64,000 nt of DNA. It comes from Candidatus Bipolaricaulota bacterium (GTDB lineage: Bacteria > Bipolaricaulota > Bipolaricaulia > RBG-16-55-9 > DRXL01). Positions within the stretch are counted from its first letter, which is position 1. Every line of letters starts with the position of its first letter. The notes beneath the pieces are model-generated. The model did no database searches and was not told the origin of the DNA. It saw only the letters and a program-made list of their open reading frames with translations. Of this stretch, positions 17,140 through 26,584 are shown in pieces. Location of the stretch: the NCBI GenBank assembly GCA_030550495.1, contig JAUQPG010000004.1, positions 2,476 through 66,475 on the forward strand. Direction: 5' to 3'. The translations under genes were made by a program, and so were the position numbers.

Positions 17140-17562
17140 TTAAATATCTAACACACACTCGACTTGGACCCTATCAGGCTGCTGGAGCACACGGAGATTA
17201 TTGTACGTCACGGCTTTGACGTCTATGCGTGGATCATGCCGTGAGCGGTCTAAGGGTTCGCCCGCGATCTTGGCCTTCAGAGCCAAGTCTTGCCCTTGAG
17301 GGATGACAGTTACGTGAAATTCTGAGAAGACGCATCCCGTGCGGTCGCGCTCTAAGATCAGTCTGTTGAGCCAATCCGCTAACAGTACCTCAAGGGACTC
17401 AGCACGCAGCTCAACGGCGATCGTCCTGTGCGGGAGCACAGTCTCTATATTGACCATCAGGGAGAAAAGCGCGCGGGCTGCTTCGGCAAATGCTTCTGAG
17501 ACCGTCTCGCCCCAAGCACGAATCCCTACTTCTGCTGTCACGTCAAAATACTCAAAGGGCAT
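17140..17562 (-). CDS. Archease (RtcB cofactor family)
   Basis: 140 aa: MPFEYFDVTAEVGIRAWGETVSEAFAEAARAL...KAVTYNNLRV. Confidence 0.9.
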   Translation of the reverse strand: MPFEYFDVTAEVGIRAWGETVSEAFAEAARALFSLMVNIETVLPHRTIAVELRAESLEVLLADWLNRLILERDRTGCVFSEFHVTVIPQGQDLALKAKIAGEPLDRSRHDPRIDVKAVTYNNLRVLQQPDRVQVECVLDI

Positions 17563-17568
17563 AGGGGC

Positions 17569-18126
17569 TCATCCTAGCTCCCACGTTGCCACGGGGGTAT
17601 AGATCGCGCCACTCGGCGATAATTGGCTCTCCATAAGCGTCAGATGGGTGATCGGCGCGTGACAGGCAAACTCCCCAATCTGGGCAAAGATCTGGGCAAG
17701 CTGTCCTGCCCGCGTCGGGCGCTCGTCTTTGATACGCCCTACAGTCACATGCGGCGTGAAATGTCGTTCTGCTTCAAAGCCCATCTTGATCAGTTCACGT
17801 TCTAGACGTTCTTGGAGCGAGAGAATTGCTTGGGGAGCTTGGCTTGTGCCGATCCAAAGTACCCGCGGCCGGTGCACCGTGGGAAACGCGCCCACGGTGT
17901 CGAACACTAGCTCAAACTTCTGAGCTGATGCGGCCGCTTGTGCTCCCAGGATCTTCAGAGCGTCGAGAGCTGTCGGGGCGACCTCGCCGAGAAATTTAAG
18001 AGTGACGTGGAAGTTTTTCGGAGGCACCCACGTCACGCGCGCATCTAGGGCTCTGAACCGCTGAGCAATCTTGTCCAGCTCTGCTCGAACGGCTTGGGGC
18101 AACTCACAGCAGTAGAACAGACGCAT
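17569..18126 (-). CDS. thpR: RNA 2',3'-cyclic phosphodiesterase (ThpR/LigT, 2H family)
   Basis: Two H-x-T-x motifs (HVTLKF and HVTVGR). Its start overlaps the pyrI stop by 23 nt. Confidence 0.9.
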   Translation of the reverse strand: MRLFYCCELPQAVRAELDKIAQRFRALDARVTWVPPKNFHVTLKFLGEVAPTALDALKILGAQAAASAQKFELVFDTVGAFPTVHRPRVLWIGTSQAPQAILSLQERLERELIKMGFEAERHFTPHVTVGRIKDERPTRAGQLAQIFAQIGEFACHAPITHLTLMESQLSPSGAIYTPVATWELG

Positions 18127-18577
18127 AGGGGCCTTCTATGAGGGTCTCGCAGTAATGGCACCGGAGCCGCAGGGGCTCCCGACTCTCCACGACAACATAC
18201 GACGTAACTCGTTCTATATTGGTGATGCAATTGCGGTTGGAGCAGCGCACGATGCCGATCAGTTCTTGGGGGAGTTCCACAGGGATCTTCTGCACCACGG
18301 CAAAATCTTTGATGATGTTCACCGTGGCGTGAGGGGCGACAATAGCGATCTTCTTCACGGTCTCCGCCTCGAGAACACGATTTTCCACCTTGACCATGTC
18401 TTTCAAGCCCAAGCGCTGGCTGCGCACGTTCATCGCGACGATCACGGTATCGTGGCAGCCTTGCTCAATCCCTAAGATCTTCAGCACGGCGGGGGCCATT
18501 CCTGCCGTAATATGGTCGATCACGGTGCCGTTCTTGATCTTCGAGACCTTCAGTTCGCCGTCACTCACTCCTCTCAC
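18104..18577 (-). CDS. pyrI: Aspartate carbamoyltransferase regulatory subunit
   Basis: [14 protein letters not shown]...CSNRNCITN...CHYCE zinc domain. Confidence 0.9.
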
Positions 18578-24006: not shown

Positions 24007-24126
24007 ATGATTTCTTTCACTATACAGATATGCCGTGGCACGGCTTGAGCCGGATCACCTCAAGCTACATATTGGCGGGCATTATAGCAGAAGGAGGACT
24101 GGGGGTCAAATCGCTTGCCGTATCGA

Positions 24127-25215
24127 CTATTTCACGGCTCTTGGCTTCACAGATTTGGGTGGTTGCGAGCCAGCCTCTGGCTCACAACCGATCTCCCATA
24201 TCCCCGCGCGTTCGATCACTGTGAACCGAGAGCCCGCGATCTGCTCCGCCACCCAAATATTTGTCTTAATGTGATCTGTCAGTTCGGTGCAAAAGAACCT
24301 TCCACCAAAGAGTGCCAAAAACGGGATGATCTGATCAGCCATGTGCCGGTCAAGCGTCGCACCGCGGCGCAACTCATTCAGTAATGCCGACGCAGCACGC
24401 TCACCGACTCTTTCGGCAGGCACGCCGCGCTCCCCCAGTGCGTCCCCTCCCAAGATAGTCTTTGCGCAATCTGCCCAGAGCACGACAGCTGACCCTGGTG
24501 AGAGCGTCTCGACGTAACGCGTCTCGATTTCAAGAGAAATCCCAGAAAGCTCTCGCTGCAGAAGCGCCTGTGCGGCTTCGGCTTGACGTTCAGCGACCTT
24601 GCCCTTTTGCAGATGGTGTGACGCCAGCGAAACCCCCGCAATCTTGTGAAGCTGCCCTTGCTCAGGGAAATCGAATGGTTTCGCAATATGGGCGGGGCCA
24701 AAGCGCGCGCACACTCGCGCCCCGCCCTTGGGATAGAAGCCCTCGCGCTCAACAGTAAGATGCGCTGGGAATCCCCAACGACTCAGGAGGGCGAAGGTGA
24801 CGTGCTCCAGCGCGGCTATCGGCGGTGCCCACTGCCCATACGTGCCCCCGCCCTCGATCTCGACGCTGACTCTCTGGGCACAGCGCGCCAGCGCGATCTG
24901 AATGGGCTGAAGCGCCAACGCTACCGAGCCCGCCGTCTCGATCCGAATCGTGAGGGAATCGGTTTGTATCAGGCCTGGGGAGAAGACAAGCTCGCGCGAA
25001 CCGATCTGCGCGCCCTCAAGACGCGCTTGACAGAGCTGGGCTGCGGCACGTACGCCCGCGAGGTGCTGGGCTTGTATCCCCGGATTGGGCCGCCCCTGCC
25101 GAATATTTATTACTCTGATAGATTTGTGCAAGGCAATAGCCAAGCCTAGCCCAACCCGTAAGACCGAGCCGCCCCCTATAGCACCATCTAGAACAAGCAC
25201 TCCTTCGCTTGCCAT
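24127..25215 (-). CDS. rtcA: RNA 3'-terminal phosphate cyclase
   Basis: ...GGGSVLRVGLGLAIALHKSIRVINIRQGRPNPGIQAQHL..., an RtcA signature. 362 aa. Confidence 0.9.
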   Translation of the reverse strand: MASEGVLVLDGAIGGGSVLRVGLGLAIALHKSIRVINIRQGRPNPGIQAQHLAGVRAAAQLCQARLEGAQIGSRELVFSPGLIQTDSLTIRIETAGSVALALQPIQIALARCAQRVSVEIEGGGTYGQWAPPIAALEHVTFALLSRWGFPAHLTVEREGFYPKGGARVCARFGPAHIAKPFDFPEQGQLHKIAGVSLASHHLQKGKVAERQAEAAQALLQRELSGISLEIETRYVETLSPGSAVVLWADCAKTILGGDALGERGVPAERVGERAASALLNELRRGATLDRHMADQIIPFLALFGGRFFCTELTDHIKTNIWVAEQIAGSRFTVIERAGIWEIGCEPEAGSQPPKSVKPRAVK

Positions 25216-25276
25216 AGTGCCCTCTCTGTGATATTGTTGTTATCCTACTCTGAAGGACAGCGTTTGTCGAGTAAGT

Positions 25277-26584
25277 ATGTACAGCATACGATTACGAGGC
25301 ATCTACGCGACGGCGTTGGCGGCAGTAGCGCTCGAGCACGGCTGGCGCGTGGCGCAGCCCCCTGAAGAGCTTCAGTCTCGTGTGAACCCAGAAGATCGCT
25401 TTGCCCCATTTGATCTTGAGGTCCGGGATCGTGATGACCGCCAAGGCGTGCTAGTCCTCGGGGATACGAATGCTGTCGGTGCTTTCAAAAGACTGCTCTT
25501 GGCTGAGCTCCCCGATGTCATCTGTGTGCCAGCCTTGACAGAGTTAGGTGCAATTTATCTGGGGATCGTGCACAAGCGCCGTGCCCTAGGCTATGAGATA
25601 GACCTAGGTAATTTCATGGGGTTTCTGCCCAAGACGGAGCTCACACACCCACTCAAGAAGGGCGAGGCTATTCGCGTGCAAATCAGAGAGATCGTTCATG
25701 TTCAGCCGATCGTGACGACCCAGCTCAGCCTCGCTGGACGATTCGTGGTGCTCTGCCAAAAGCAAGGTGTGGGCATCAGCAAAGAGATCATCGACCCTGA
25801 TGAGCGCAAGCGGCTCTTGAGTCTTGGAAGAAGATATTGCGCCAACGGCTGGGGGGTGATCTGGCGCACTAGTGCGTATCGAAAGGATCTTCGCGATCTC
25901 AAAAGTGAGATCGAGATCTTACAGCGCGACTTGCCCACGCTCGAGGGACACCCTGACGAAGGCATCCCTGGGAAGTTGCGCTCGGGCCAAATGACCTTGA
26001 TCTGTGAGTTTCCCGGAGGGAGCAAGCAAGTGCTCGATCAATGGCGTGCGCGTCTCATCCCAACAGAGCCAGGATATCATCAGAGTCAAGTGGGAGATCG
26101 AGCCTGGCCGCGCGTAGGCCAATCGATCTTCATCGAGCACGTCAAGGTGCCTAGCGAGCTGAGCGTGCTGATGCGCGCTCGCGTGATCGCCGTAAGTCCT
26201 AGTAGTATTACTGTGCGTCGCGAGATCAAGGGCACGGGAGTCTACGATGGGCTCAATATCCCCAAAGAATCGGGTGACTATGCCGTAACGGAATTTCTTC
26301 AAGGCGCTTGGCACTATGAGACGCGCTACTACTCGCGGAACGGCTTGCTCAAGGGCATCTATGTGAATATTAACACGCCCATAGAGATTTACGCAGATCG
26401 CGTGCGCTATGTCGACTTGGAGATCGATGTTGTGCAGAGACCCACTGAACCAGCGCAGGTCATTGATGAGCCGAAGCTTGAGTCCATGGCTCAGTATGTG
26501 AGCTCCGGCCTCGTGCAACGAGCGCGCACCGTCGCTGCGGAGTGCGTGCAGATGCTCAATCACTGCGCTCATGGCGCAGAGTGA
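25277..26584 (+). CDS. FAU-1-like protein: RNase E/G-like N-terminal region fused to a C-terminal DUF402 domain
   Basis: S1-like region, GRFVVLCQKQGVGISKEIIDPDERKRL and GVIWRTSA (the RNase E/G 5'-sensor/catalytic-half pattern). The C-terminal ...GIYVNINTPIEIYADRVRYVDLEIDVV is DUF402-like. Confidence 0.65.
   Translation: MYSIRLRGIYATALAAVALEHGWRVAQPPEELQSRVNPEDRFAPFDLEVRDRDDRQGVLVLGDTNAVGAFKRLLLAELPDVICVPALTELGAIYLGIVHKRRALGYEIDLGNFMGFLPKTELTHPLKKGEAIRVQIREIVHVQPIVTTQLSLAGRFVVLCQKQGVGISKEIIDPDERKRLLSLGRRYCANGWGVIWRTSAYRKDLRDLKSEIEILQRDLPTLEGHPDEGIPGKLRSGQMTLICEFPGGSKQVLDQWRARLIPTEPGYHQSQVGDRAWPRVGQSIFIEHVKVPSELSVLMRARVIAVSPSSITVRREIKGTGVYDGLNIPKESGDYAVTEFLQGAWHYETRYYSRNGLLKGIYVNINTPIEIYADRVRYVDLEIDVVQRPTEPAQVIDEPKLESMAQYVSSGLVQRARTVAAECVQMLNHCAHGAE

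Follow-up and report, generated by a model that had tools for sequence, protein, structure and literature searches.

Archease and thpR in a predicted pyrBI operon, and an archaeal-type RNase W gene beside rtcA, in an uncultured Bipolaricaulota bacterium

Why should genes for enzymes that act on RNA 3'-ends be interspersed with those of pyrimidine biosynthesis, and why is archease among them with no rtcB at its side? The question is raised by positions 17140-26584 of a 64,000-nucleotide stretch of DNA (the window), in which archease, thpR, rtcA and a gene for an RNase W (FAU-1) homologue surround pyrI, pyrB, carB and carA. The window is a contig of a metagenome-assembled genome from an uncultured Bipolaricaulota (Acetothermia/OP1) bacterium. 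Its proteins are closest to homologues named Candidatus Bipolaricaulota, Acetothermia or 'bacterium HR07'. A bacterial 23S-5S rRNA-tRNA unit is present, as are housekeeping genes typical of bacteria, among them those for UvrA, DnaE, enolase and ribosomal protein S1. Taken one by one, the genes of the locus are unremarkable representatives of known families, and their arrangement is real and non-random. Three things about it are unusual: archease lies with thpR in the predicted pyrBI operon, not by rtcB, and has a clade-specific motif; an archaeal RNase W is found in a bacterium; and the RNase W gene recurrently adjoins rtcA. On balance, we favour the view that separately promoted units, two RNA 3'-end modules and the pyrimidine genes, lie side by side at this locus, with RtcB probably encoded elsewhere.

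A preliminary description of the locus, made from the sequence alone, had assigned identities to the eight genes. Pfam and NCBIfam models bear out all of them, and ThpR, PyrI, PyrB, CarA, CarB and RtcA exceed the curated NCBIfam cut-offs. The genes are as follows.

17140-17562, minus strand: archease, 140 amino acids (aa); PF01951, E=1.6e-38
17569-18126, minus strand: thpR, RNA 2',3'-cyclic phosphodiesterase (2H phosphoesterase), 185 aa; TIGR02258, 142.6 bits against a cut-off of 65.7
18104-18577, minus strand: pyrI, aspartate carbamoyltransferase regulatory chain; TIGR00240, 172 bits against a cut-off of 148.6
18574-19494, minus strand: pyrB, aspartate carbamoyltransferase catalytic chain; TIGR00670, 367 bits
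19610-22816, minus strand: carB, carbamoyl-phosphate synthase large subunit; NF003671, 1677 bits
22795-23967, minus strand, as an open reading frame (ORF): carA, carbamoyl-phosphate synthase small subunit; TIGR01368, 486 bits
24127-25215, minus strand: rtcA, RNA 3'-phosphate cyclase; TIGR03399, 320 bits against a cut-off of 250; PF01137 and PF05189 also match
25277-26584, plus strand: RNase W (FAU-1) homologue, 435 aa; partial PF10150 and PF04167 (DUF402)

Residues characteristic of the families are retained. Archease aligns over residues 3-140 with positions 1-136 of the 136-position PF01951 profile, that is, end to end. Both extended motifs of ThpR are present, HxTxxF as H40-V-T-L-K-F45 and HxTxxR as H126-V-T-V-G-R131, as are all four zinc-binding cysteines of PyrI. 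The adenylylation histidine of RtcA is H315 in the sequence DHIKTN, which aligns to the CHLLTN motif of the Escherichia coli enzyme. Gene callers start carA at ATG 23949, giving a protein of 384 aa (22795-23949). The true start of pyrB is probably the conserved GTG one codon in; the GTGCAGGGG motif is kept across relatives.

In the preliminary description, thpR and archease came last in the order carA-carB-pyrB-pyrI-thpR-archease and appeared to be transcribed with the pyrimidine genes. The junctions given there are exact as read from the sequence: the ATG of thpR at 18126 lies 23 nucleotides (nt) inside the end of pyrI, and that of archease 6 nt past the thpR stop. Relatives of archease were collected by scanning one genome per GTDB species, with neighbouring genes mapped by tblastn, and the set was extended by one more distant Acetothermia contig and by metagenome contigs from the Joint Genome Institute (JGI). 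Besides the window, about 19 Bipolaricaulota assemblies have the order pyrB-pyrI-thpR-archease, with identities as low as 56% in archease and 46% in ThpR. Because it recurs in so many independent assemblies, the arrangement exceeds chance. Across the roughly 20 loci, the gaps among the four genes range from -37 to +33 nt, leaving aside two outliers that are either artefacts of start picking or exceptions. Upstream of pyrB, and beyond archease, promoter-like sequences were identified.

19512-19540, minus strand: predicted pyrBI-thpR-archease promoter, TTGCCC-17-TATAAT with an upstream TG, 10/12 consensus positions
17115-17143, minus strand: promoter-like site, TTAACG-17-TATAAT, 10/12 positions, between archease and a CARDB-domain gene (16031-17089)

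In nearly all 20 relatives, a TTTGCC-N17-TATAAT sequence is found 15-25 nt upstream of pyrB, and L044, the most distant of them, has it too; in L012 and L016, this promoter falls within the 3' end of rtcA. A scan of the window predicts no promoter or terminator between pyrI and archease and no terminator after archease, and no attenuator or riboswitch was seen at the pyrB promoter. Co-transcription of pyrB, pyrI, thpR and archease is thus well supported by comparison: the order recurs, the gaps are tiny or negative, the promoter is conserved and no internal signals are predicted. The proposed coupling thus stands for pyrBI. It does not extend to carAB; these genes have a predicted promoter and attenuator of their own, and in many relatives they are missing or lie 0.75-2.7 kb away from pyrBI. 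Since the positions of carAB and rtcA relative to pyrBI differ among relatives, we regard both as separate units. The window ThpR resembles its E. coli counterpart in size and in having both extended motifs (PMC4201822), but the E. coli gene is stand-alone and dispensable, whereas that in the window is translationally coupled to pyrI upstream and archease downstream.

The carAB genes are preceded by the following elements.

24081-24109, minus strand: predicted carAB promoter, TTGACC-17-TATAAT with an upstream TG, 11/12 consensus positions
23937-24061, minus strand: carAB leader, read from the sequence, with an extended Shine-Dalgarno-like GAGGTGATCC at 24061-24052
24041 (GTG) to 23937 (stop), minus strand: leader ORF of 34 codons, ending 13 nt inside carA
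24006-23977 and 23975-23968, minus strand: perfect terminator hairpin and U8 tract, inside the leader ORF

A terminator had been placed between rtcA and carA. The hairpin and U tract are real, but as they sit downstream of the strong promoter at 24109-24081 and inside a conserved leader ORF, they are better read as part of a carAB attenuator than as simply the end of rtcA. The promoter is kept in 11/11 relatives examined. The leader ORF has 33-35 codons in 10/10 loci and always ends 13 nt past the carA ATG; its insertions and deletions come in multiples of 3, one relative having a 3-nt deletion that leaves the frame intact, and the hairpin is invariant in the relatives that have the leader. 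A promoter, a leader ORF spanning an intrinsic terminator and a pyr gene downstream, the arrangement seen in pyrL-type leader-peptide attenuators, were found at 10/10 loci. From this anatomy and its conservation, carAB would appear to be an independent unit under leader-peptide attenuation. The classical model for such control is pyrL of E. coli pyrBI, where likewise a promoter is followed by a leader ORF running through a terminator with a long U tract and then by a pyrimidine gene. The leader described here differs in governing carAB instead of pyrBI and in overlapping the start of carA by 13 nt, and it probably represents a new case of such attenuation, from an uncultured phylum. The carA leader was also considered as a known riboswitch or as a PyrR site, and both ideas were dropped: no Rfam family matches at a meaningful score, and RNAalifold finds almost no covariation beyond the invariant terminator.

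Two relatives show variations in this region. In L048 (8965-9031), the whole leader is gone and a GTG start comes almost immediately after the conserved promoter, which points to a deletion that left carA nearly leaderless. In the Logan assembly L001 (4747-7953), carB is split into two ORFs of 457 and 559 aa; L002, an otherwise identical contig, has carB intact at 1068 aa, and the split is probably an assembly or sequencing frameshift.

The plus-strand protein beside rtcA had been described as FAU-1-like, with an RNase E/G-like N-terminal half and a DUF402 domain. This holds, and the protein is not an ordinary RNase G. The protein matches the structures 8wo8 and 8rza ('Probable ribonuclease FAU-1') over its full length (E=1.8e-69 and 2.4e-68, respectively), in two stretches of residues 3-276 and 276-432, and has the RNase W architecture of an N-terminal half with RNase E-like S1 and 5'-sensor regions followed by a catalytic DUF402 C-terminal domain. 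The match to the RNase E structure 4oxp is weak (E=3e-5 over 80 aa); TIGR00757, the RNase E/G model, gives 44 bits against a cut-off of 326, and PF10150 is covered only at profile positions 1-73 of 270. The active-site and ligand residues of RNase W reported by Vayssieres et al. (2024, PMC11602121), H326, K328, R355, D364, T378, Y391, N404, D420, D424 and D437, are retained in the HMMER alignment as H288, K290, R315, D324, T338, Y351, N364, D380, D384 and D397, and the 5'-phosphate switch residues R10/R12 of that study as R5/R7. Of the regulatory pair H271/H272, only H272 is kept (Y267-H268 in the window protein, with Tyr in place of H271). Judged by residue conservation, we take the protein to be a bona fide RNase W whose catalytic site is predicted to be intact.

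The RNase W family has been called archaea-specific (PMC11602121), and in a survey of more than 15,000 bacterial genomes, its KEGG orthologue was found in 0% of bacteria outside the Candidate Phyla Radiation (PMC12641178, supplement). This recently defined ribosome-biogenesis nuclease is nevertheless found across the sampled Bipolaricaulota. Its homologues in the phylum span 37-100% identity and the next nearest are those of Bathyarchaeia, at about 33%, which suggests an old acquisition from archaea. Downstream, RNase W is always followed in the phylum by a gene for a thioredoxin/DsbA-like lipoprotein (window 26633-31295, plus strand; L007, L008 and L009). Beyond it lie several large ORFs without a Pfam match and, in the three relatives for which genes were called, a VKOR gene.

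The divergent arrangement of rtcA and the RNase W gene, with its spacer of exactly 61 bp, is confirmed by reading the sequence; the preliminary description missed that the pairing is itself conserved, and is tandem in archaea.

25216-25276, between the two genes: divergent control region of rtcA and RNase W, 61 bp, with overlapping promoter-like sites on both strands
25270-25242, minus strand: promoter-like site, TCGACA-17-TAGGAT
25209-25237, plus strand: promoter-like site, TTGCCA-17-TATTGT

The divergent pair is present at at least 10 Bipolaricaulota loci, with a spacer of 48-61 bp whose sequence is conserved in 10 relatives. At 3/3 archaeal loci sampled, rtcA directly precedes the RNase W gene in the same orientation. 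These three loci were picked without knowledge of their context and represent only two independent lineages: in two related Bathyarchaeia, the genes overlap by 8 and 29 nt (L097:4971-7425 and L098:4995-7446), and in a member of the Methanomethylicota, they are separated by 11 nt, with flanks that differ from those in Bathyarchaeia (L099:761-3252). The window protein thus shares with archaeal RNase W its full-length architecture, its catalytic and 5'-phosphate-switch residues and its rtcA neighbour, and differs in its bacterial host, in being divergent from rtcA rather than in tandem with it, and in the Tyr at position 271. A search of one literature library found no paper that mentions RtcA together with FAU-1, RNase W or DUF402 in this context, and PMC11602121 is silent on RtcA. 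Compared with the E. coli rtcBA operon and its activator RtcR, the window has an RtcA that retains the catalytic histidine and is encoded among other RNA 3'-end enzymes, but neither rtcB nor the sigma-54/CARF activator RtcR; its rtcA is predicted to be monocistronic, with a sigma-70-like promoter, and is divergent from the RNase W gene. The two promoter-like sites in the spacer overlap back to back (25209-25270), with predicted starts about 9 bp apart, and RNA polymerase at one may exclude it from the other. A joint transfer of rtcA and RNase W from archaea was also considered and was dropped, as the RtcA identities do not back it.

The repeated pairing hints that the products or substrates of RNase W bear 3'-phosphate or cyclic-phosphate ends. 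The crystal structure of RNase W has a 3'-phosphate bound in the active site (PMC11602121), and FAU-1 products behave as if they carry a 2',3'-cyclic phosphate and a 5'-OH (Ikeda et al. 2017, PMC5627344). Since ends of the FAU-1 type are those that RtcA makes, ThpR opens and RtcB seals, a functional theme is plausible.

Might the clustering instead be purely historical, four RNA genes with unrelated housekeeping roles held together by neutral streamlining and conserved synteny? Enolase, DivIC, DnaE, CofD and an aminotransferase are syntenic over the same evolutionary range, and rtcA, the RNase W gene and carAB have no fixed position with respect to pyrBI. Moreover, the neighbours that RNase W keeps most faithfully in the phylum, and the only ones that it keeps in lineages outside the subclade to which the window belongs, are the unrelated thioredoxin/DsbA-VKOR pair. 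Against this, rtcA adjoins RNase W in two independent archaeal lineages as well as in this bacterial subclade, whereas we estimate the chance adjacency of two given genes at about 1 in 1000 per genome, and the four enzymes act on or reportedly produce the same ends, 2',3'-cyclic or 3'-phosphate with 5'-OH. We consider a purely historical origin unlikely, although it fares better than the other alternatives discussed below.

The established partners of archease are RtcB and a tRNA 5-methylcytosine methyltransferase. Outside the phylum, in Proteobacteria, Cyanobacteria and methanogens, rtcB directly follows archease at 16/17 loci, starting about 100-330 nt downstream, and it likewise follows the nearest outgroup archease, that of L045 (50% identity); no thpR was found near any of these loci. 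We aligned 105 archease sequences, 48 from clusters of the Bipolaricaulota clade and 57 others. In 48/48 clade members, the canonical H-T-A-D is replaced by V-T-A-E (V8 and E11 in the window), whereas the other archeases have His in 53/57 and Asp in 55/57 at these two positions. The clade members all keep K116 and D139, and all end in Ile or Val. In Pyrococcus horikoshii, the activation of RtcB by archease relies on D12, D141, K117 and the C-terminal carboxylate; the D12A substitution removes most of it, and with H9A or K117A it is severely lowered (Desai et al. 2014, PMC3973293). The Mn ion that contacts the GTP gamma-phosphate in the human complex is bound by the equivalent Asp together with the C-terminal Asp and the terminal carboxylate (PMC10944509). 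The equivalent of Asp12 in the window protein is Glu11, so that a carboxylate is kept, and D139, K116 and the C-terminal I140 are conserved. As judged from these residues, the clade archease would keep the chemistry of the metal tip and lose a residue important for RtcB activation. It therefore belongs to the same family as the archease of the archease-RtcB 'tRNA splicing operon' (PMC3973293), matching PF01951 end to end and sharing its Lys, its C-terminal Ile and putative metal-binding carboxylates, but it has no adjacent rtcB, is the last gene of pyrB-pyrI-thpR-archease and, like the whole clade, has Val for His9 and Glu for Asp12.

Two archeases may bridge the canonical and Bipolaricaulota types. 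That of L095 (1130-1633) has the intermediate motif H-T-A-E and diverges from an MTHFR gene; the ORF that follows it resembles the N-terminus of RtcB in its first 22 residues, which indicates that the D-to-E change alone is compatible with RtcB. That of L096 (1222-1647) has V-T-A-D; the contig has a gene for a CDC48-like AAA ATPase beside it, and rtcB does not directly follow. A further sequence, P0187, was considered as a ThpR-archease fusion and proved to be a frameshifted archease.

The absence of rtcB from the window, noted in the preliminary description, is upheld, the best tblastn match having E=0.88. Pfam scans of all large ORFs in the window revealed no PF01139, no RtcR-like activator and no other RNA ligase; the sole sigma-54-domain match is weak and sub-threshold and falls on a MoxR AAA ATPase. 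A homologue search from the RtcB adjacent to archease in L045 gave only Planctomycetota-type matches, of at least 69% identity, and neither 'RtcB' nor 'archease' occurs in the supplementary tables of four Bipolaricaulota genome papers. Because the literature describes archease as the cofactor of RtcB, we infer that RtcB is probably encoded elsewhere in the genome. This is supported by the invariance of the predicted metal tip (E11, K116, D139 and C-terminal Ile/Val) in the 48 clade members and by the D-to-E archease P0190, which still precedes an RtcB-like ORF.

Archease might alternatively be independent of RtcB in this clade and serve an adjacent enzyme, either RtcA or ThpR, the latter in a LigT-type, GTP-stimulated end-joining. 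Its coupling to thpR in every clade member sampled, the two gap outliers aside, fits such a role, as do the general adjacency of rtcB, and never thpR, outside the clade (L095 included), the fixed V-T-A-E motif with the crippling effect of H9A, and the lack of an RtcB in any Bipolaricaulota sequence examined. In addition, PF0027, a 2H enzyme of Pyrococcus, can join ends in a GTP-dependent reaction that is unexplained (PMC4201822). However, the sequence examined amounts to about 1-3% of any one Bipolaricaulota genome, so that failure to see RtcB means little; the clade archeases keep in full the predicted metal tip, which in RTCB positions the GTP gamma-phosphate; and the D-to-E change occurs also in an rtcB-linked archease. 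Nor does E. coli ThpR carry out ligation (PMC4201822), and a link of archease to ThpR or RtcA is without experimental backing. We therefore regard an RtcB-independent archease as improbable, and a little more so its extension to a whole pathway in which ThpR and archease, possibly with RtcA and RNase W, handle 2',3'-cyclic phosphate ends without RtcB, for example in rRNA maturation. If true, such a pathway would give archease a second physiological partner.

To our knowledge, nucleoside 2'-monophosphate, the product of ThpR, is used by no salvage route. That ThpR, perhaps with archease, is tied to pyrimidine supply, hydrolysing 2',3'-cyclic pyrimidine nucleotides in a salvage co-regulated from the pyrB promoter, is very unlikely: the predicted co-transcription with pyrBI is strictly conserved, cleavage of the RNase W type would yield cyclic-phosphate products and E. 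coli ThpR hydrolyses mononucleotide 2',3'-cyclic AMP (PMC4201822), but the product would be this same 2'-monophosphate, archease has no known role in nucleotide metabolism, the operon holds no other salvage gene and its promoter has neither attenuator nor riboswitch.

We return, then, to the view that separately promoted units are juxtaposed here. RtcA, which regenerates cyclic ends from 3'-phosphates, would most likely act on the same RNA ends as RNase W, because in archaea of the TACK group rtcA and the RNase W gene occur as a near-overlapping tandem; by analogy with archaea, these ends would probably be those of pre-rRNA or of RNA-turnover intermediates. The carAB genes would be controlled independently by their attenuator. 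From one promoter, a single pyrB-pyrI-thpR-archease operon, conserved across the sampled Bipolaricaulota, would supply ThpR, which opens 2',3'-cyclic ends to leave a 2'-phosphate, as the enzyme is described to do (Remus et al. 2014, PMC4201822), and archease, which would position the metal and the nucleoside triphosphate for an RtcB ligase encoded elsewhere. The link to pyrBI would be a fixed operon fusion that lends thpR and archease a promoter, with no biochemical tie to pyrimidine synthesis.

Several observations weigh against this view. The presence of RtcB elsewhere is an assumption: tblastn with E. coli RtcB and an archaeal-type RtcB found none in about 332 kb of Bipolaricaulota loci, and a scan of JGI metagenomes with RtcA found no rtcB beside any of 48 loci (7 close and about 40 distant). 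In all 48 clade archeases, valine occupies the position of His9, the residue whose substitution by alanine severely lowers RtcB activation in P. horikoshii. Within Bipolaricaulota, only the subclade of the window has rtcA adjoining the RNase W gene, the adjacency being absent in L007, L008, L009 and L015; RNase W lies near none of about 33 more distant RtcA loci; and the window RtcA is 36-39% identical to the archaeal RtcAs linked to RNase W and 41-43% identical to others. The whole region is syntenic across the phylum, so that conserved order alone is weak evidence of selection. Finally, operon co-transcription and promoters are predictions from sequence and comparison, not transcript maps. 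None of the findings overturns known biology. With archease locked to thpR in the pyrBI operon, and with both its rtcB adjacency and an activation residue lost, the clade is a natural test case for further archease partners.

Outside the locus, the window holds several features of separate interest.

40752-44550, minus strand: 23S rRNA gene with about 870 extra nt, mostly a single 742-nt insertion

The insertion (41718-42459, minus strand) follows E. coli 23S position ~1917 and is a group I intron (Rfam RF00028, 34.7 bits, E=5e-7, under the gathering score) that carries a LAGLIDADG homing-endonuclease ORF at 41773-42303. An archaeal-type intron needing RtcB was considered as the source of the extra nucleotides and was discarded, most of them belonging to this ordinary group I intron. 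Smaller expansions of 17-73 nt each are found in domain I of the 23S rRNA. A cyclic di-GMP-I riboswitch aptamer (55932-56018, minus strand; RF01051, 40.7 bits against a gathering score of 35) lies just downstream of a small ORF with a nucleotidyltransferase domain (56101-56526) on the same strand. At 46372-51236 on the plus strand are PrkA, DUF444 and SpoVR genes, a conserved module associated with stress and sporulation that occurs here in a non-sporulating candidate phylum.

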